Translations under genes and position numbers: made by a program
The notes under the pieces: model-generated
Databases searched by the model: none
What the model was told of the DNA's origin: nothing
What the model saw: the letters and a program-made list of their open reading frames with translations, nothing else
Origin: an uncultured Gammaproteobacteria bacterium
Lineage (GTDB): Bacteria; Patescibacteriota; Patescibacteriia; UBA9934
NCBI GenBank assembly: GCA_964401485.1
Contig: CAYNYL010000003.1
Location: forward strand, 18,365-82,364
DNA length: 64,000 nt
Reading direction: 5' to 3'
Part shown: positions 2,974 through 12,867 of the stretch, one piece after another
Layout of the letters: every line of letters starts with the position of its first letter
Numbering within the stretch: position 1 is the first letter of the stretch

Positions 2974-5598
2974 ATGGAGCATTCGCGCGGGCGTGGAGCG
3001 GGGCCGGCTTTAGATAAGGAGAGTCTTGGGCGGGTGGAAGTGGGCCACGATCCGGAAATAACCGTTGAGTCCCGGGAGACGCCTAGTGGACCAGCTATTG
3101 ATGTTGCTCGATTTGTTGAGATTCTCGACGAATACGGGGAAATAAAGGAGGTTGAGGTGCTTCCGGAGCAAACGACGAGAAAGGCGGTTATTCTCGATTT
3201 CATGCGTAACAAGGTTCCAAAGGAGCTTCTGTTGTCCGCAGTCGCGCATGGGATTATCACTCAGCAATTGTCCTCACATGTAGATTTCGAGAATGGAAAA
3301 TACACCTGTATCGAGACGGAAGAGGACGCGGGTCCCGAGCGCGTGCGGGAGCTTATTGGGGAGTGGAGAGAAACGCAGGAAAAGCGCGAAGCGATTAAGG
3401 CGGAACTGCAGGAGGATTACAAGGGCGAGATTGAGAGGATGTATGAGCGGTTATTTCCAGAATCGATTGACGCACCGTTTTCTGAACTGATTCCGACAAT
3501 CGGGGATTACGCAACGATTGACGCGTACTCGTCGGTACTCGGCGTCGTTGGTGTGACAAGTGACCTCAAGAGCCCTGAGTATTTTGAACGCGAAGTAGCG
3601 ACGAAAAAGAATGAACTAACGGACCTCTATTCAATTAAGCTTAACGAACTTATTTACGAGGCGGGGGATCAATTTACGGGCGACGTTGAAAGAGATTTAA
3701 CGCTCCTTCAAGAGCACTTCTATTTTGGTGATTACCCGTTTATCGCAAATGGCCGCGCGAGCGAACGTCAGATTATCTATAATAAGGAAGCGAAGTCACC
3801 GATGGCCCAAATTGAATATGGAGTTGTAAATTGCACCGTTGCACAATTATTCCCCGTGATTTTGCGTGATGTTTATAAAGCAAAAGGAATCGATCTTGCG
3901 AATCTTGATGGAGTTGGAGCTGCGGTTTGGGAGGATCACGTTGAAGTCGGGCTCGATGTCGGGGAAGACTATCATCGATTTAGTCCGCTTGAACTCGCTC
4001 AACCAATTTCAGATACATTAGAGAGTGAAGACCGTGAGGCCCTCTTTTTACCTCCAAACCATTTTGTCCGCTCCCTCTATGGATCGTTTGAGTCCGCGGA
4101 TCCTAGCGCTGATCTTTTGGGAAAAGAGTGGACCGAACGATGGTTTGAGGAACATGGAGAGGGCACGCCTTCTGGTGCTCGGGTGAGACTTGAGGGGGAG
4201 CGGCCACTCCGTGTTGATACAATTTCGGGGGAGCGATATTTGGATGGACTGATTCCGGTTGGGACGCGGTACTTGTCCGCGACGGAATCGTTTGAAGAAG
4301 GGGTGGAGGCTAGAGTAAATACGGCGGAAGAAGAGCGCTTCGATGAAGAGCGCCTCTGGAGGACGCTTGAACGGTATCGACTCAATTACCGGTCGGCATA
4401 TAGCGGAGCCCCAGCCGAAGGCGCATTCGCCATCTTTTTACCGAGGTGGTTTAACGATCCCGAAGAAACACGGGTATTTCTCGCGACCGCCGAGGAAATC
4501 GGTCCATCAAGGGAGATGATTCTGGATGCGTATCTCCACGATCAGTTTGCAAAAGACCGAGAGCCAATTGCGCCGAAGCTTGAATCGGCTTGGATTGCGC
4601 ATCTCTCGGAAACGAAATCAAAAACAATCGGAGCAAGTGTAATCGGGGGCGTTGCGGATCTTCCGTTTGCCCAAGCGTACATGGATGAAAATCCTTCGAT
4701 TGTTCCGATTATTGCCGGTGAGCAGAGTCCTCAAGATATACGCATCGAAGCGCTAAGTGCTGTCGCGGAACGTCTGACGCGAGAGGAGCTCTCGAATTTT
4801 ACTTATCACGCCGAGTATCTTGCGAATAAAGAGGCGATTGATCGAGATCCATACGAATGGATCCGAGCGGGGGACTACCCTGGCGCTCCAACGAGCGAGC
4901 TGCGGGCCAGGCTGGTGCAGTATGGGTCGCCTTTTTTTAGGCGCGACCTCGCGCTTCGTCAGAGAATTTTGTTTCGATTTGAAATTACTGAAAAAGGACT
5001 TTCTGAATTATCGGATAAAGAACTCCTTTCTGGTGTTGAATATAATATTGGATTTGAGCAATTCCCCTCCGAATATCGAGAGGAGCTTCAAGGCCGTTTG
5101 CGTAGCTATATTTTGAGGAGCTCCGAGCTTGAAAGTTGGGATCAGTATAGTCTTCGCAGATTTGTGTGTTCCTTGCCTGACGCGGATTTCGCACTTGTTC
5201 GAGAAAGCGTTGCGGCGAGCGGTTTGCTTTCTCTTGAGCAAATTGCTGCGCGTGATATCGAAGATCCATCGCTTCTCTCAAGTGAACACATTTTCCTTTA
5301 CGGGGAACGTTTTTATAGGTACGACGGAATTGACGAGCTCTTTATTGAACGATACCGCGCTTCGGATCGGGATTCGAGAGCGCAAGCGATTCGCGATTTG
5401 GTTAGATACGCGGCGGAAGTAGTTAATATGGGTATTGCGCGTGATGTGAATCACACGTCTCGAGCATTATCACAAGAAGAATTATTCGAGATAAGACTTT
5501 ATAGTGGTAATCCGCGGTTTGGCGAACTGATGTCGGATGAAGGGAAAGATTTCGAGCAAACGATCAAACTCCTTGATTTACAAGAAGCTGAACGATAG
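2974..5598 (+). CDS. Large acidic hypothetical protein (874 aa), no domain recognised
   Basis: Long uninterrupted ORF with host-like composition and ATG start. No motif I can assign. Confidence 0.6.
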   Translation: MEHSRGRGAGPALDKESLGRVEVGHDPEITVESRETPSGPAIDVARFVEILDEYGEIKEVEVLPEQTTRKAVILDFMRNKVPKELLLSAVAHGIITQQLSSHVDFENGKYTCIETEEDAGPERVRELIGEWRETQEKREAIKAELQEDYKGEIERMYERLFPESIDAPFSELIPTIGDYATIDAYSSVLGVVGVTSDLKSPEYFEREVATKKNELTDLYSIKLNELIYEAGDQFTGDVERDLTLLQEHFYFGDYPFIANGRASERQIIYNKEAKSPMAQIEYGVVNCTVAQLFPVILRDVYKAKGIDLANLDGVGAAVWEDHVEVGLDVGEDYHRFSPLELAQPISDTLESEDREALFLPPNHFVRSLYGSFESADPSADLLGKEWTERWFEEHGEGTPSGARVRLEGERPLRVDTISGERYLDGLIPVGTRYLSATESFEEGVEARVNTAEEERFDEERLWRTLERYRLNYRSAYSGAPAEGAFAIFLPRWFNDPEETRVFLATAEEIGPSREMILDAYLHDQFAKDREPIAPKLESAWIAHLSETKSKTIGASVIGGVADLPFAQAYMDENPSIVPIIAGEQSPQDIRIEALSAVAERLTREELSNFTYHAEYLANKEAIDRDPYEWIRAGDYPGAPTSELRARLVQYGSPFFRRDLALRQRILFRFEITEKGLSELSDKELLSGVEYNIGFEQFPSEYREELQGRLRSYILRSSELESWDQYSLRRFVCSLPDADFALVRESVAASGLLSLEQIAARDIEDPSLLSSEHIFLYGERFYRYDGIDELFIERYRASDRDSRAQAIRDLVRYAAEVVNMGIARDVNHTSRALSQEELFEIRLYSGNPRFGELMSDEGKDFEQTIKLLDLQEAER

Positions 5599-6387: not shown

Positions 6388-9300
6388 ATGCTAAAAAACG
6401 GGCTTACTATGCCTATCTACGAACAACTCGCCCGCTTCTTATTCCGTAATGGAAAATTGATCTTTTTCGCTTTTGCTCTTCTTGTGGGGCTTGGATCATT
6501 TGCCCTAACGCAAATCGAACGACAGGGATTCCCTGCGATCTTAGTTAACGTTGCCTCTGTCCAGGTCGTTTATCCGAACGCTGACGCTGAAACCGTTGAG
6601 CGTGAGATTTTGATTCCGCTTGAGGCGGAAATCGAAGCGATTGATACGGTTCTTGAATATCAAGGATCGGCGGGAGATAACTTCGGACTTTTAATCGTTA
6701 CGTTTGATCAAAACGCGGATATTGACGAGGCGGTTGCGGAGCTCCGTAACTCGGTATCGAGCGTTACGCTTCCTTCTGGCGCAAAAGAAGCTGAAGTTGA
6801 GTTGTTTTCGGTTAATGGCGTTGGAGAGTTTATTGTTGCGTTAACGGGCGACGGAGATCCGATGCGACTCTACGAAAAAGGACTTGAATTTGAGACCTCG
6901 CTTCAGGGAGTTGATGGAGTAAAGAAGGTGACAGCCATGAACCCGCTTACCCCGGAGATTCGGATTACGTTTGACGGAAAGGCGCTCGCGGAGGCTGGTC
7001 TTACGCGAAGTGCCGTTGAGGCGCAACTTCAGGGCGCAAATTTCGTTGCGCCTGCCGGATCAATTATTGAGGACGAAACGCAAGTGAATATTGCCGTTGC
7101 GAGCCGGCTCACGACTCTCGGCGAGCTCAAGGCGTACACGCTCGCTCCAGGCGTCACTCTTGATGACGTTGCGAAAATTGAAGAAGTTGTAAACAACAAC
7201 GATTACTATAACCGTGTTGGTATTGAGTCGAAGAAGGGAGATGTCGCTGTTTCCCGTGCTCTTCTTTACGGTATTGCGATTGACGCGGATGCCGATATTC
7301 TTACGGTTGATGAGTCGCTTAAAACGGCGCTCGAAACGGTGCGAGACAATGAGCCAAAAAATTCGAAGTACGGCTACGAGATTGTGTACTCGCAGGCTGA
7401 TTCGACACGACAACAAATTTCGGAAATCTCACAAAGTATGTTTGGTGCGCCGATTGATGCGTTCGGACCGCTCGCGTTCCTCGGATACATTTTTGGTGGA
7501 CTTCTTCTCGTTGTCATCATGCTTTTTGTACTGATGAACCTTCGTGTTGCGATTCTCGCAGCGCTCGCGATCCCGCTTTCGCTTTTCGCGACGCTAGGCT
7601 ACTTGTATTTCGTAGGCATTGATCTTAATACGCTCGTTCTTTTCTCAATGGTGCTCGTCATCGGTCTCGTTATCGATCCAACGATCGTATTCATGGAGTC
7701 GATGCAACGCTATATCGATGAAGGAATGTCGCCAGAGGACGCGGGAATTAAGACCCTTAAAACGGTTGGACTCGGAGTATTTCTCGCTGTGGCGACGAAC
7801 GCGATCGTCTTTATTCCGTTTGGAGTTGTTTCTGGATTCTTCGGAGAAATTATTAAATATATTCCAGCGACCGTTATCCCTTCGATGATTGCAAGTATCG
7901 TAATTCCGGTCTTGTTCTTCATCCCGATTGGAGCGAAAATTCTCCGTCCTCGAAAGGGTGTGGTTGATGTTGACGGTAGTCTTTCGACGACGTGGGCGGT
8001 TAGCCGTGGTCTCAAACGCCTCCTCGACGGTCTCCTCAAAAAAGGAAAACTTGCCGGCGCGATTCGAGTTGTCGTCTTTGTTGGACTTATGGCGCTTCCG
8101 CTTGTTGTCGGAGGTGTCATGATTCAAACGAAAACGGTTGAAGTTGTGCAATTTGCGGCAACGGACGATTCGGATTTCATGACGATTTCGGGAGATCTTC
8201 CGGATGAATGGTTGTTTGATAAATCGGTGTACGAGGTTGTGGTTCCGGTTCAAGACATTGTTGCTGAGTACGAGGAAGTTCAATCGTTCTTCTACTACGA
8301 ACAGCGTGGAAATGATTTTACCCTCTTTGTTACGCTCGATCCGATCAAGGAGCGACAAGACGCGGAACTCATGACGGCGACAGAGCTTGCCGAGGCGCTC
8401 AACAAGGACTTTGCGTCTCAAAAATTTGACGCCGAAATTAAGGCAGTTGTTTCAAGCGATGGACCTCCTCAAGAGCAGTTCCCAGTTAAACTACGCGTCT
8501 ATCTTGACGACGAAGCGACTCTTGCTGATACGGTCGAGGCGATGCGTTCATATCTTTCGGATGTCGAAGGAGTGGATGTTGTAAACGATACGCTATCAAA
8601 GAAAACAACCGGAGGAACGGTTGTCTACGAGGTTGATTCTGCGAAGGGTGTGCCGGCCGGTCTTGTGTACGGCGCGCTTGCTGAGCGAATTGCGGATCGA
8701 GAACTCGGGGAGCTTACGCTTGGATCGACGAAGTATGAAATTCATTCGCAATATACGGGCGAAAAAGTAAATGATTTCTTGGAACTCGAAGTACTTCCGG
8801 GCCTTCCGCTTGGCGCGGTTGCGACCGAAACGACGCTTGAGTCAAAGACAATTGCTCGATCGAACGGAAAGCGTTACGCGGAAATTTCCGCCTCAGTTCT
8901 TAAGGACGCCGATTCTGCGTTAATCCAGGCAGAGTTTAAGGAGTTTGCGGAGCAGTACGCAAAAGAAAATGACCTTCCGCTGAACGCGCTCGACTTTAAG
9001 GGGGAAGCGGATTCGATCGCCGAGTCGTTCAACGATTTGTTCGTAGCGCTCGCGATTGCCATCTTTATCATGTACGCGCTCCTCGTAATCTTCTTCCGTT
9101 CATTCTTCGAGCCGTTCATCATTCTCTTCGCGATCCCGCTTGGACTTGTCGGTGTATTCCTTGCGATTGGTGCAACGACGGGCCAACTTGGATTCCTCGA
9201 GCTTCTCGGAGTTGTAACGATGACGGGAATTGTTGTAAACGTAACGATCCTCATTATCGACTACGCGAACCAGCTCAAACGAGAAGGGAAGTCGGTTGAA

Positions 9301-9543
9301 GAAGCAATTTCTACGGCAATCGCTCTTCGATTCCGACCGATCGTGCTTACACAGATGACGGCGTTTGGAAGTCTAATCCCGCTCGTGTTCCTTTCGCCGT
9401 TCTGGCAAGGGCTCGCCGCGTCGATTATCTTCGGTATCATTTTCTCCGGACTTCTCTCGCTTATCTCGACGCCGATCCTATACCTCTGGGCCTACTCGGT
9501 GCCGGAGATGGCAAGAAACCTTATTCGAAGATTCCGATCCTAA
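6388..9543 (+). CDS. RND superfamily efflux transporter permease (AcrB-like, 12 TM)
   Basis: 1051 aa with two large periplasmic loops and two TM bundles. The second bundle has an RND-like pattern (FAIPLGLVGVFLAIGATTGQLGF...VVNVTILIIDYANQ). Confidence 0.8.
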   Translation: MLKNGLTMPIYEQLARFLFRNGKLIFFAFALLVGLGSFALTQIERQGFPAILVNVASVQVVYPNADAETVEREILIPLEAEIEAIDTVLEYQGSAGDNFGLLIVTFDQNADIDEAVAELRNSVSSVTLPSGAKEAEVELFSVNGVGEFIVALTGDGDPMRLYEKGLEFETSLQGVDGVKKVTAMNPLTPEIRITFDGKALAEAGLTRSAVEAQLQGANFVAPAGSIIEDETQVNIAVASRLTTLGELKAYTLAPGVTLDDVAKIEEVVNNNDYYNRVGIESKKGDVAVSRALLYGIAIDADADILTVDESLKTALETVRDNEPKNSKYGYEIVYSQADSTRQQISEISQSMFGAPIDAFGPLAFLGYIFGGLLLVVIMLFVLMNLRVAILAALAIPLSLFATLGYLYFVGIDLNTLVLFSMVLVIGLVIDPTIVFMESMQRYIDEGMSPEDAGIKTLKTVGLGVFLAVATNAIVFIPFGVVSGFFGEIIKYIPATVIPSMIASIVIPVLFFIPIGAKILRPRKGVVDVDGSLSTTWAVSRGLKRLLDGLLKKGKLAGAIRVVVFVGLMALPLVVGGVMIQTKTVEVVQFAATDDSDFMTISGDLPDEWLFDKSVYEVVVPVQDIVAEYEEVQSFFYYEQRGNDFTLFVTLDPIKERQDAELMTATELAEALNKDFASQKFDAEIKAVVSSDGPPQEQFPVKLRVYLDDEATLADTVEAMRSYLSDVEGVDVVNDTLSKKTTGGTVVYEVDSAKGVPAGLVYGALAERIADRELGELTLGSTKYEIHSQYTGEKVNDFLELEVLPGLPLGAVATETTLESKTIARSNGKRYAEISASVLKDADSALIQAEFKEFAEQYAKENDLPLNALDFKGEADSIAESFNDLFVALAIAIFIMYALLVIFFRSFFEPFIILFAIPLGLVGVFLAIGATTGQLGFLELLGVVTMTGIVVNVTILIIDYANQLKREGKSVEEAISTAIALRFRPIVLTQMTAFGSLIPLVFLSPFWQGLAASIIFGIIFSGLLSLISTPILYLWAYSVPEMARNLIRRFRS

Positions 9544-9611
9544 ATCAAGAGCGCTCCTTCCGGGGCGCTTTTGACTTTGGCTAAAATGAGCTTATTTTAT
9601 ATCATTTTACC

Positions 9612-9640
9612 TTGACTTTTTGGCCACAATATGCTATATT
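9612..9640 (+). promoter_or_regulatory. Sigma70-like promoter for the DGR target gene (TTGACT-17-TATATT, with extended -10 TGC)
   Basis: cTTGACTttttggccacaatatgcTATATT. Perfect 17-nt spacer. Confidence 0.55.
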
Positions 9641-9775
9641 AACTCCTGTACTTTTCATCTGCGCTAAGATTGGTTATAGCAAAAAGTGGCTTGATAATAG
9701 GCTATTTCTCGCTATGACCAATTCGGTCTACAGCTCCACCTCGGATAGAGGGATGCTAGAAAAAAGGATGACGCC

Positions 9776-10399
9776 ATGACCCAGATCATGACCCCATCGA
9801 AGACCACGACCGACGGCCAGATCATCAAGGCCACCGCGAACTTCCGAGCCATGCTCGAGAAGCATGCGGGGGAGTTCTCCGCCGATGCCGTGCAAACGGT
9901 GCTCGGCGATCCGGGACTTGCTGGCGAGATGCTCGCGGTGCTTCGTAGACGTGTCGAGGCCATCTCGAACATCATCGTTCGCAAGGTCACGGTGAATCGC
10001 ACCCGCTCCGCGCAGGATGCCCTCAAGGCCACGGGTCGTGTCATGTACACAGACTCCGCAGTCGTGGAAGCGGTGCCGAGCGGCGAGGGCGAGGAGGCGG
10101 AGATCTGCCTCTTCAAGCTCGACCTGTCGAAGCGCGGCGGATGGATCTCGGATGACGATCTCGAGAAAGAGTTCGATCTCCGAGGCCTGAAGCCCGTCGA
10201 CCCGTTCGCGCTCGCTGCGCTGAACGAGGCCGATCCGGCCTTCGCTGACGAGAAGCCGAACGCGACCCACTGGAAGGATGTGCAGGGCGACTGGTGCTAT
10301 GCGGTCTTCTACGGGTGGTTCGGCGAGCGCCGGGTTTCTGTCAACCGTCACGACTACGATTGGTACGGCAGCTGCTGGTTCGCCGGCGTCCGCAAGTAG
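9776..10399 (+). CDS. DGR variable (target) protein with C-terminal VR, likely CLec-type fold
   Basis: 207-aa ORF, markedly GC-rich and GC3-biased. Its last ~35 codons (DWCYAVFYGWFGERRVSVNRHDYDWYGSCWFAGVRK) form the VR that pairs with the downstream AAC-rich TR. Confidence 0.8.
   Translation: MTQIMTPSKTTTDGQIIKATANFRAMLEKHAGEFSADAVQTVLGDPGLAGEMLAVLRRRVEAISNIIVRKVTVNRTRSAQDALKATGRVMYTDSAVVEAVPSGEGEEAEICLFKLDLSKRGGWISDDDLEKEFDLRGLKPVDPFALAALNEADPAFADEKPNATHWKDVQGDWCYAVFYGWFGERRVSVNRHDYDWYGSCWFAGVRK
10290..10395 (+). repeat. DGR variable repeat (VR) at the 3' end of the target gene, ending in a GC-rich IMH-like segment
   Basis: About 105 bp aligned to TR at 10724..10828. 18 mismatches, 17 of them where TR has A. 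The last ~20 bp (ggttcgccggcgtccgcaa) are identical. Confidence 0.85.
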
Positions 10400-10449
10400 C
10401 CCTTCGCTCTCGAGTTCTAGGGGCTTTTGTCCCTTTGGACTTAGCTCTT

Positions 10450-10489
10450 GGCCCCGTTCCGATTCCTCGGGACGGGGCCTGTGTTTTTC
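10450..10489 (+). terminator. Hairpin downstream of VR (GGCCCCGT...ACGGGGCC plus T-run): target-gene terminator and/or DGR homing-associated stem-loop
   Basis: 8-bp perfect GC-rich stem followed by tgtgtttttc, about 50 nt after the stop. Confidence 0.55.
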
Positions 10490-10723
10490 AAATTAAGTTA
10501 TAATAACTTTGGTAGTAGGTGAGTAGGCGAACGGTCAAGGCTTTTCGCTACCGAATCCAGTATCCATGCGTTTCGAGTATTCGCGGCTATGGTTTCGAAT
10601 AGAGTGTCGCATGCAGACTCTTCAAAAATGAAGCTACTTGGTACGGGATTTTATGGTATTGTGATGCCGAATGCGATTCAGCTTCGAGAAATTCTAGGGG
10701 CGGTGGCACAGAAGGAATCCTGT

Positions 10724-10828
10724 ACAAATGCTATGCGATCTTCAACAGGTGGAACGGCGAGCGCCAGGTCAATGTCAACCGTAACGACAACGATTGGAAC
10801 GACAACTACTGGTTCGCCGGCGTCCGCA
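10724..10828 (+). repeat. DGR template repeat (TR)
   Basis: Invariant copy of VR. In the VR frame it encodes KCYAIFNRWNGERQVNVNRNDNDWNDNYWFAGVR. It is very rich in AAC (Asn) codons, the DGR hallmark. Confidence 0.85.
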
Positions 10829-10835
10829 ACTCGCT

Positions 10836-11237
10836 TCATTTCTCTCCGGCGTTTGTCGGAGAGTTTTGTTTGGTGAGTTGGCCGTTCCAACCGCCCAGCA
10901 TTTTGCCGACCTCATCTAGTTTGATCGAAAGAGCGATATATTTCTTATTGTCGAGCGACTTTGTCTCCCAGAGAATTAAAATCAGGACGCGTAGAGTGTC
11001 CATCTTTTTAATAGCGAGGCGCACATAAGGGTGCTTTTCGATAGGTGAGAGAAAACTGGCGGCAGATAGCGCTTCTATCGTCTCAATGAATAAAATGTCG
11101 ACCCGCTGACCGAGCGAGTGTCGGTGAGTCTTTGGGAGTTCGCGGTGATAGTTGTGCCAAATGATGTAGGACTCCTTGGTTTTACTTAGGACTGGCAAAA
11201 TTTTGTAAGGGGGGGGTACTATAGGGGTACGATTCAT
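10836..11237 (-). CDS. avd: Accessory variability determinant (Avd)-like four-helix-bundle protein
   Basis: 133 aa. YHRELPKTHRHSLGQRVDILFIETIEALSAASF matches the 4HB/Avd pattern. C-terminal LDEVGKMLGGW resembles the Bordetella phage Avd EVGRILGSW. Lies between TR and RT but on the opposite strand. Confidence 0.7.
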   Translation of the reverse strand: MNRTPIVPPPYKILPVLSKTKESYIIWHNYHRELPKTHRHSLGQRVDILFIETIEALSAASFLSPIEKHPYVRLAIKKMDTLRVLILILWETKSLDNKKYIALSIKLDEVGKMLGGWNGQLTKQNSPTNAGEK

Positions 11238-12224
11238 ATGCGTTTTGATTGTCCTTATGATGATATCATTTTAGTCGAAAATCTTCTTGAGGCATGGAAA
11301 GAATTTGTTCGGGGAAAGCGGTCGCGAGAGGATATCTTGCGGTTCGAGCGGGACCTCATGGGAAATATTCTTTTGCTTCACGATGAACTTAAAGCGAAGA
11401 CTTACACCCACTCCCCGTATCACCACTTTAAAATCACGGATCCAAAATTAAGGGATATTCACAAGGCTTCTGTTCGGGATCGGCTTTTACATCACGCGAT
11501 TCACCGTAAGTTGTCTCCCTTTTTTGAGAAACGATTTATTTCGGATTCGTATTCTTGCCAGAATGACAAAGGAACGCATCGTGCTTTACGGCGATTTAGA
11601 AAATTTGTAAACAAATGCTCTAAAAACTCAACGAAGACGGTTTGGGTTTTAAAATGCGATATTCGGAAGTTTTTTGCGAGCATCGATCAAAGGAGACTGC
11701 TGACGATCTTGGAAAGGACGATTGAAGATAAGGAATTACTTTGGCTGATTGCTCGGGTTGTTCGAAGTTTTTATGTTACGACCCCGGGTATCGGACTACC
11801 GCTCGGCAACCTCACCTCGCAACTATTTGTGAATGTGTATATGAACGAATTTGACCGGTTTGTAAAACATCATCTAAAGGCTCGCTACTATATTCGCTAT
11901 GCGGATGATTTCGTTGTGCTTGATACCGATCGTTTTAAATTGATCGAGACGCTGTTGAAAATGAACACATTTCTTAATGAAGAGTTGGAACTGTCACTTC
12001 ATCCGAATAAGACGTTTATCCAAACCGTCGCGTCAGGTGTGGATTTTCTTGGGTGGGTACATTTTTCTGATCATCGCGTCGTTCGTGGCACAACAAAACG
12101 GAGAATGCTTTCTAAGCTTCGGGATGGTGTGAAAAATGAAACACTACAGTCGTATCTTGGACATTTACGGCATGGAAATAGTCGGAAATTACTCGCGATA
12201 CTTCAAGATCGATTTATTTCTTGA
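11238..12224 (+). CDS. DGR reverse transcriptase
   Basis: YADDFVV catalytic motif. GLPLGNLTSQLFVNVYM is the DGR-specific IGxxxSQ-type motif. FKITDPKLRDIHKASVRDRLLHHAIHRKL, SYSCQNDKGTHRA and CDIRKFFASI align with bRT-like RT motifs 1 to 3. Confidence 0.9.
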   Translation: MRFDCPYDDIILVENLLEAWKEFVRGKRSREDILRFERDLMGNILLLHDELKAKTYTHSPYHHFKITDPKLRDIHKASVRDRLLHHAIHRKLSPFFEKRFISDSYSCQNDKGTHRALRRFRKFVNKCSKNSTKTVWVLKCDIRKFFASIDQRRLLTILERTIEDKELLWLIARVVRSFYVTTPGIGLPLGNLTSQLFVNVYMNEFDRFVKHHLKARYYIRYADDFVVLDTDRFKLIETLLKMNTFLNEELELSLHPNKTFIQTVASGVDFLGWVHFSDHRVVRGTTKRRMLSKLRDGVKNETLQSYLGHLRHGNSRKLLAILQDRFIS

Positions 12225-12867
12225 GAAATGGCCAGTCGGGTTTTGCTTCGAGGGTGATCCGTTCGTCGCCGACGACGGTGGTAAAGGAAAGTTTGTGGGC
12301 GAAGAGGGCGATTTGGCGACCGATGTCTTTGTTCGCGCCGTATTTTTTGTCGCCGACGATTGGGGTTTTGAGGGACTTCATTGCTACGCGGATTTGGTGT
12401 GAGCGTCCCGTAATCGGTTTCACTTCGACAAGCGAAATGCCGTCCTTTGTAGAGAGGGTTTTGTAGGTCAGCTCCGCGTACTTCGATCCCGGGACTTCCG
12501 TATTGTGGTAGGTTGCGAGATTTGTTCGCTTATTCTTTGAGAGCCAGTGTTTTACCGAGCCTTCTTTCGGTTCGGGAGTGCCCTCGACGGCCGCGAGATA
12601 GATTTTCTCAACGGTCCTTAGGCGGAACTGTTCGGAAAGACGCGTCGCGCCTTTTGATGTTTTTGCGAAAAGAACAATACCGCCGACCGGTCGGTCTAGG
12701 CGATGAACGAGGCCAAGGAATACCGCGCCCGGCTTTTGGTACTTCTCTTTAAGATAGTCTTTGACCATGTCCATTAAGGACGGATCGCCGGTTTTATCGC
12801 CCTGGACCGGAATCCCTGCCGGCTTTACGACGGCGATGGCATGGTTATCCTCGAAAAGAATGATCAT
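12214..12867 (-). CDS. RluA-family pseudouridine synthase
   Basis: VHRLDRPVGGIVLFAKTSKGA contains the HRLD...T motif of the RluA family. The 3' end overlaps the RT stop convergently. Confidence 0.8.
   Translation of the reverse strand: MIILFEDNHAIAVVKPAGIPVQGDKTGDPSLMDMVKDYLKEKYQKPGAVFLGLVHRLDRPVGGIVLFAKTSKGATRLSEQFRLRTVEKIYLAAVEGTPEPKEGSVKHWLSKNKRTNLATYHNTEVPGSKYAELTYKTLSTKDGISLVEVKPITGRSHQIRVAMKSLKTPIVGDKKYGANKDIGRQIALFAHKLSFTTVVGDERITLEAKPDWPFLKK

Follow-up and report, generated by a model that had tools for sequence, protein, structure and literature searches.

The stretch analysed here, 64,000 nucleotides (nt) of contig CAYNYL010000003.1 (positions 18,365 to 82,364; assembly GCA_964401485.1) from an uncultured bacterium of the GTDB lineage Patescibacteriota, Patescibacteriia, UBA9934, and hereafter called the window, holds a complete diversity-generating retroelement (DGR). 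Open reading frame (ORF) and repeat analysis identify a target gene ending in a variable repeat (VR), a template repeat (TR), an accessory gene, avd, on the opposite strand, and a reverse transcriptase (RT) gene. Comparison with related loci from bacteria of the candidate phyla radiation (CPR) indicates that the parts of this cassette are probably separate transcription units, that avd and RT probably have divergent promoters, and that a short repeat just inside avd probably gates the production of Avd, a reading drawn from sequence comparison throughout.

In the mechanism that we propose, the target gene would end in a terminator of its own, and the TR RNA would start from its own -10 box, run through a structured leader of 218 nt and the TR, and stop at a terminator that doubles as the last codons of avd. 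This RNA would be the template for reverse transcription, with the leader presumably in the role that the spacer plays in the element of the Bordetella phage. The avd and RT genes would be expressed divergently from overlapping promoters, the -10 element of avd lying inside RT codons 8-11 and a -10-like hexamer for RT inside the first codons of avd. Most relatives have an ATG 7 nt after each -10 element, so that the two mRNAs would be leaderless and complementary to each other over their first 24 nt; in the window, which has lost both of these ATGs, the starts would have moved inward to a shared CATATG, leaving leaders of roughly 8 and 15 nt. A hypermutable repeat (eight G residues, G8, in the window), placed after the avd start and before the Avd core, would set the reading frame and so turn Avd on or off stochastically. 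Because DGR reverse transcription needs Avd in the system that has been studied, mutagenesis would switch with it. Such switching in vivo, its reversibility and its effect on DGR activity are what the comparisons below lead us to expect, and the tract, which forms a spacer immediately 5' of the RT -10-like hexamer, may also tune transcription of RT.

A length-variable repeat at the start of avd

Related loci were collected by a scan with one genome per species, which gave 80 loci. The Avd protein consists of a core four-helix part (residues 14-117) and an N-terminal extension (residues 1-13), and the repeat tract lies in the extension. Between the avd start and the core, 67 of 79 loci carry a run of 7 to 14 G residues (G7-14); eight have another repeat at the same position, 10-78 nt long and built from units of 2, 4 or 7 nt, namely (CTGG)n, (GATT)n, (GGCGGCT)n, (GATTGCT)n, (GT)n or (GA)n; and four have none. 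In no replacement repeat is the unit length divisible by three, and the junction carries either a non-triplet repeat or a G7-14 run in 75 of the 79 loci in total.

The tract differs in length between contigs that are otherwise the same. When metagenomes were scanned by DNA pattern, junctions with flanks at least 97% identical fell into 17 clusters, and in six of these the tract varies in length. The contigs L105, L111 and L218 are identical over 5.5-7.2 kb save for G10, G8 and G9 respectively, and two A8 runs within the same alignments are invariant; the comparisons L163/L181, L186+L196/L212, L166/L208 and L169/L028 likewise differ in tract length only, so that length polymorphism in otherwise identical contigs is seen in five related lineages. 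Among the replacement repeats, CTGG is present in ten copies in L002 and in three in its relatives L081-087. Both of the window's own contigs (L088 and L089) have G8, and no variation in tract length was found among contigs with identical RT or Avd proteins, an invariance that is probably due to their origin in a single study or to protein identity having pre-selected one frame.

Two side observations concern the distribution of such junctions. L105 carries two of them (4768-4831 and 7150-7213, with G10 and G8) about 2.4 kb apart, which come either from two separate DGR cassettes or from duplication of an avd-RT module. The same junction type, with G7, occurs in L155 and L177, from a human-gut metagenome contig, and is therefore not confined to groundwater CPR bacteria.

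Changes of tract length have consequences for the reading frame. In-silico translation from the leaderless ATG gives a full-length Avd of 145 amino acids (aa) in L218 (G9), 147 aa in L181 (G10) and 131 aa in L186 (G10), and at the other tract lengths found in those lineages Avd stops after 25-50 aa. G8 puts the avd of the window in frame; its nearest relative, L225, has the same CATATG with G9, and its avd is out of frame, with only a 55-aa avd fragment called. Across 104 distinct junctions, the frame set by the ATG reaches the tract without a stop codon in every case, compared with 12 and 20 junctions for the other two frames. Three marks of a phase-variable locus are seen at this junction, namely a repeat in the 5' coding region, length polymorphism among relatives and a frame shift in silico; a further mark, high-frequency and reversible switching with a change in expression, would be expected. 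That Avd might be mostly on was also considered and was rejected, upstream ATGs showing no enrichment in the avd frame (17/16/19 and 22/35/47 across the three frames).

The template RNA

The TR RNA looks like a discrete transcription unit of about 360 nt, predicted to run from 10511 to about 10871 (Table 1). Upstream of the TR, relatives have the terminator of the target gene and then a -10 box, and a TAnnnT hexamer begins 12-13 nt 5' of a conserved GGYAGTAGG start in 41 of 43 relatives. For 31 aligned leaders, RNAalifold predicts 54 base pairs, 39 of which show compensatory changes; 97.1% of alignment cells are paired, as against 36-49% when the partners are slid by one to three columns, and none of 500 shuffles matched the observed covariation value on any measure. 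Rfam gave no relevant match for the leader or the TR RNA (window positions 9300-12600, E <= 5). Equivalents of the stretch 10511-10728 are present in L002-L079. The leader may be the CPR counterpart of the spacer RNA of the Bordetella phage.

Downstream of the TR lies a putative intrinsic terminator, recognised by a GC-rich hairpin, a U-run directly after it and a fixed position, the opposite strand of which encodes the last ~10 codons of avd. A GC hairpin followed by TTTT stands 3' of the TR in all 66 relatives in which the TR could be assigned, with a median stem of 9 bp and a median energy of -14.4 kcal/mol, and in most of them it begins 2-16 nt after the TR. The inner stems vary in sequence among loci and preserve their pairing. 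Read on the minus strand, the hairpin has no T-run after it, and the terminator would accordingly act in one direction. The avd codons within it (122-127) are constrained at synonymous sites.

The same synonymous-codon analysis of related loci found conservation in avd limited to the repeat tract, codons 13-14 and these terminator codons, with no excess constraint in the body of the gene. A regulatory antisense-avd RNA, as envisaged in the original prediction, finds no support in that pattern. The related candidate that the antisense strand of avd serves as a spacer-like RNA 3' of the TR was rejected on the same distribution of constraint.

Candidate promoters at the avd-RT junction

ORF coordinates confirm what had been noticed at the outset, that avd is inverted between TR and RT and that the two starts meet in CATATG with no free intergenic space. 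Relatives do not in general share the exact CATATG, the spacing of candidate starts being variable among them; it recurs in L225, the nearest relative, and in L071, and CATG is found in L036 and L046. A minus-strand TGnTAnnnT motif, an extended -10 element, occurs at one fixed offset in 65 of 79 loci, and an ATG follows it after exactly 7 nt in 42 of 46, the reverse complement of that ATG being the conserved CAT of RT. Excess synonymous conservation in RT is seen at codon 5 (His, CAT) and codons 9-12 (GAT ATC ATT TC), with peaks of +0.43 and +0.44 at the codons bearing the -10 element. To this extent the suggestion of an avd promoter within the coding sequence of RT is borne out, as a candidate promoter, and the 7-nt spacing to the ATG suggests that the predicted avd mRNA is leaderless.

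On the RT side, a TAnnnT hexamer directly follows the tract in 29 of 67 loci, and TAnnnT starts at -13 from the RT ATG in 18 of 59 loci, compared with 1-5 at other offsets; in the window TACTAT starts at -21. No convincing full promoter emerged at the junction when the window was scanned with a sigma-70 consensus, and the promoter calls derive solely from the comparative conservation of -10 elements. Doubt had also been raised as to whether one of the two starts is correct. The doubt itself is reasonable, given that the window lacks both usual start positions; the alternative then offered, an internal TTG at codon 14, is not a conserved start, since many relatives have TTA or another codon there.

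RT frames without an ATG, GTG or TTG near the conserved N-terminus were seen to stay open through the G tract. The lineages without a canonical RT start are L015, L018, L023, L028, L039, L040, L050, L062 and L066, and further L068, L070, L074, L079 and L090-L099. In the L090 lineage, read by hand, a GTG lies upstream of the tract and would come into frame with RT at another tract length than the one that brings avd into frame.

Table 1. Features of the DGR cassette, with positions numbered from the first nucleotide of the window
Feature	Position	Strand	Remarks
Target gene	9776..10399	+	ORF of 207 aa; VR at 3' end
VR	10295-10395/400	+	3' end of ORF 9776..10399
Terminator-like hairpin and T-run of target gene	10450..10489	+	13-bp stem, TGTGTTTTTC; same element at same place in relatives
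Candidate -10 box of TR RNA, TATAAT	10499..10504	+	Conserved spacing; begins at -12 in the window
TR RNA leader	10511..10728	+	218 nt, conserved, structured
TR	10729-10829/34	+	Repeat match to VR
avd	10836..11237	-	133 aa; Avd-like, with Pfam bAvd and NCBIfam DivGenRetAVD scores under the curated cut-offs
Putative intrinsic terminator of TR RNA	10842..10871	+	9-bp hairpin CTCTCCGGC-GTTT-GTCGGAGAG (10842-10863), then TTTTGTTT
G8 homopolymer	11209..11216		C8 on avd strand, Pro-Pro-Pro; avd codons 8-10; abuts RT -10-like hexamer
-10-like hexamer TACTAT, candidate RT promoter	11217..11222	+	Directly 3' of tract
CATATG	11235..11240	both	CAT 11235-11237 (avd start); ATG 11238-11240 (RT start)
DGR reverse transcriptase	11238..12224	+	328 aa; RVT_1, E 3.4e-22; YADD and LGNLTSQ in translation
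Extended -10 TGATATCAT, candidate avd promoter	11260..11268	-	Embedded in RT codons 8-11

Alternative explanations

Several observations weigh against separate units with a repeat-gated Avd, and must be set beside the evidence above. Tract lengths are taken from assembly consensus sequences, in which long G runs are error-prone, and contigs from one study always share one tract length. In only 22 of the 104 junctions (21%) does the ATG share a frame with the Avd core: either most populations are 'off', or Avd can also be initiated 3' of the tract. The open-frame signal upstream of the tract is in part a consequence of that frame being codon-aligned antisense to the RT gene. Compensation of tract length by linker length, as would be expected of promoter spacing, was looked for and rejected (r = -0.08). 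At the junction, no -35 element was identified; the window has neither of the usual ATGs (CGA/ACG stands at the RT position and ACA at the avd position); the RT -10 element is at leaderless spacing in only about one third of loci; and about 15 related loci or lineages have an RT frame with no canonical start downstream of the tract. The rules of promoter recognition and leaderless translation applied to CPR bacteria are assumed from model bacteria, and the terminator may be leaky, so that some read-through into RT is possible.

Taken further, such read-through becomes the explanation put forward in the original prediction, in which RT has no promoter of its own and must be transcribed through the TR and antisense to avd, the antisense RNA regulating avd. 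The lack of free intergenic DNA between avd and RT is in keeping with it, as are some 15 loci whose RT lacks a canonical start 3' of the tract; termination at intrinsic terminators is seldom complete, and in the Bordetella-phage element TR and brt are co-transcribed. An obligatory read-through is, however, contradicted by the strong hairpin and T-run after the TR in 66 of 66 loci and by the -10-like hexamer that precedes the RT start here and in many relatives, whilst the TR RNA has a conserved promoter and 5' end of its own and the unconstrained body of avd gives no indication of a functional antisense RNA; we regard this explanation as very unlikely. The tract might alternatively act on transcription only, as the spacer of the RT promoter, as part of an avd 5' untranslated region, or both, in the manner of a rheostat, with Avd starting downstream and the upstream ATG frame being incidental. 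Its position directly 5' of TAnnnT in 29 of 67 loci would fit, as would the 16-20 nt that separate a conserved TGGCAA-like hexamer from TAnnnT, the lack of enrichment for in-frame junctions (22 of 104) and the NCBIfam Avd profile, which begins at residue 14, past the tract. Yet the replacement repeats of 28-78 nt (L002, L003, L004, L007 and L046) cannot be accommodated in a 17-nt promoter spacer, the unit length is divisible by three in none of the eight replacement repeats, all 104 junctions leave the ATG frame open as far as the tract (12 and 20 for the other two frames), and several loci offer no in-frame start downstream of the tract, codon 14 often being TTA. A purely transcriptional tract is accordingly judged unlikely.

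The remaining alternatives accept the tract and dispute how it varies. Were the length differences artefacts of sequencing or assembly, the tract could be kept for another reason, as a G-rich ribosome-binding site for RT or as a poly-proline stalling peptide: the G run lies 13-25 nt before the RT ATG, poly-C encodes Pro-Pro-Pro in any frame, homopolymers of at least nine are hard to sequence, and contigs of the same study always have one length. Against error stand the two-nucleotide difference between G8 and G10 as the sole change in 6.5 kb, the stability of A8 runs in the same alignments, length differences in five independent lineages, ten CTGG copies in L002 against three in L081-087, and eight loci with unrelated replacement repeats whose only common trait is that they are repetitive; an artefact of this kind appears highly improbable. 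In other bacteria RNA polymerase is known to slip on long homopolymers, and a tract that is stable in DNA could have its frame corrected by slippage during transcription or by programmed frameshifting on the C-run, giving a constitutive, low and tract-dependent level of Avd. This would account for loci in which the junction is out of frame (79%) and adenine-specific differences between VR and TR nevertheless record past DGR activity. Differences in length are however seen directly in DNA, and tetra- and heptanucleotide repeats are not prone to transcriptional slippage, and slippage or frameshifting as the whole explanation is unlikely; it is compatible with a frame switch encoded in the DNA, and the two could act jointly.

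The cassette and its Avd among known systems

The cassette is a DGR by its repeats and by its proteins. In the window, 14 of the 15 internal mismatches between TR and VR fall at TR adenines, and the same pattern, differences almost only at TR adenines, is found in 66 related loci. A TR/VR pair was found in 70 related loci and could be assigned unambiguously in 66, in all of which the TR is on the RT strand and the VR upstream; in these 66 the distance from the avd stop codon to the end of the TR ranges from -41 to +42 nt and is most often 6 nt (20 loci). The RT stands beside the TR and contains LGNLTSQ, a motif which we take to be typical of DGRs. It has 8000 homologues at E <= 1e-20, of which the named ones belong to Patescibacteria, and its relatives sit in DGR cassettes.

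The assignment of Avd comes from profiles and from genomic association. It matches Pfam bAvd PF22296 with an E-value of 3.4e-09 (37.6 bits; curated cut-off 40) and NCBIfam DivGenRetAVD NF033474 with 3.4e-15 (56.2 bits; curated cut-off 80), the latter over residues 14-117 and profile positions 1-102 of 104; the E-values are significant, and both scores are under the curated thresholds of their families. A search gave 1910 homologues, of which those listed carry a precomputed PF22296 hit and those with a name come, as for RT, from Patescibacteria; a sequence search of the PDB gave no match. The gene is associated with a DGR RT and a TR in the window and in 78 of 78 relatives.

All 78 related Patescibacteria loci that hold DNA upstream of RT have avd on the opposite strand to RT, immediately upstream of it. 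The inverted avd is conserved and already known, and is no artefact. The portion of Wu, Gingery et al. (Nucleic Acids Res 2018; PMC5758913) covered here describes TR-(avd)-RT as Architecture B3, found in 90% of CPR DGRs, and that of Roux et al. 2021 (PMC8144416) places Patescibacteria DGRs in a clade of their own, clade 2, restricted to Patescibacteria. The co-directional layout that had been taken as canonical is so for the Bordetella-phage type and not, on the covered text of the 2018 survey, for CPR bacteria. Since the window shows the published B3 order, with avd between TR and RT on the opposite strand, the inversion is neither unusual for its clade nor a rearrangement, the artefact against which a comparison of avd orientation in related loci had been proposed.

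The window shares with B3 and clade 2 DGRs, as far as these portions describe them, the order of TR, inverted avd and RT, the host group, and a target gene upstream on the RT strand. In the same portions the surveys give gene order only: 'promoter' occurs 0 times in that of Wu et al. and 'avd' 0 times in that of Roux et al., and neither mentions the tract, overlapping promoters, an avd-embedded terminator or a structured leader. The backwards avd has been catalogued since 2018 and is ordinary on its own; the contents of the junction may not be. Within the coverage of our literature search, which Paul et al. 2017 (Nature Microbiology; CPR DGRs) fell outside, no paper linked DGRs to repeat-mediated phase variation, and none described this leader and terminator organisation or a DGR in connection with homopolymers, slipped-strand events or leaderless transcripts.

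The DGR of the Bordetella phage BPP-1 (mtd-avd-TR-spacer-brt) is likewise built on an RT, Avd and a TR/VR pair, with adenine-specific mutagenesis and a structured RNA flanking the TR. The avd gene of BPP-1 shares the direction of the cassette and precedes the TR, and the TR and brt are separated by an essential spacer RNA (PMC6182149); here the inverted avd occupies the position of the spacer, a terminator directly follows the TR, and the large structured RNA is 5' of the TR. As a terminator, the hairpin has the usual properties of the intrinsic (Rho-independent) kind, a GC-rich stem of 7-12 bp, a direct T-run and covarying stems. It departs from them in that hairpin and T-run lie wholly within the 3' coding end of a convergent gene, where they dictate the C-terminal peptide (…KQNSP…GEK).

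Phase variation through simple repeats is familiar from poly-G/C tracts in 5' coding regions in Neisseria and Campylobacter and from (CAAT)n in the lic genes of Haemophilus, and a (TA)n repeat lies in the shared promoter of the divergent hifA and hifB genes. The avd tract resembles such contingency loci in being a non-triplet repeat or homopolymer just after the start codon that is length-polymorphic between otherwise identical genomes and shifts the frame, and it resembles hifA/hifB in lying in a shared divergent control region (general mechanism: PMC5084427, PMC8355987). Unlike contingency loci, the gene that would be switched encodes no surface antigen; it encodes a cofactor of a mutagenic RT, so that one generator of diversity would gate another. 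The hosts, moreover, are uncultured CPR bacteria, in which switching is inferred from sequences rather than seen in culture.

Genomic context

The DGR cassette is tightly packed among housekeeping genes, and the 3' end of RT shares 11 nt (12214-12224) with the 3' end of a convergent gene for an RluA-type pseudouridine synthase (12214..12867, minus strand). The target gene at 9776-10399 has no family match in Pfam or NCBIfam. Its GC content is 0.64, compared with 0.42-0.50 in the sequence flanking it; among relatives the final 600 nt of the target gene have a mean GC of 0.58, against 0.41 for RT and 0.465 for the upstream flanks, and the difference exceeds 0.05 in 64 of 65 loci relative to RT and in 50 of 60 relative to the upstream flanks. 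Some contigs begin within the cassette, L083-L087 inside the target gene and L225 inside the TR; such starts would fit assembly breaks at a heterogeneous VR or at collapsed repeats, a putative explanation that concerns the position of the break points relative to the VR.

Implications for CPR bacteria and their DGRs

The contents of the junction bear on the control of DGR activity in nature; in the covered portion of PMC8144416, CPR bacteria are among the taxa most enriched in these elements. We lean, with no more than modest confidence, towards the joint reading that CPR DGRs carry a heritable and reversible avd switch, such that only a subpopulation hypermutates at any one time, and that the leader, the TR and the terminator embedded in avd form a new class of structured RNA, which replaces the downstream spacer of the Bordetella phage. 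A separate, terminated TR RNA with a 5' leader offers a concrete template for reconstituting a CPR DGR, and it suggests that the RNA requirements established for the Bordetella phage are not directly transferable. Were the switch to operate as proposed, tract length would be a tunable gate, and hence a design rule for engineered DGR systems; mixed subpopulations of 'on' and 'off' cells would be expected in metagenomes; and a frame switch on an essential cofactor would explain how an organism with a small genome limits the cost of a mutagenic RT.

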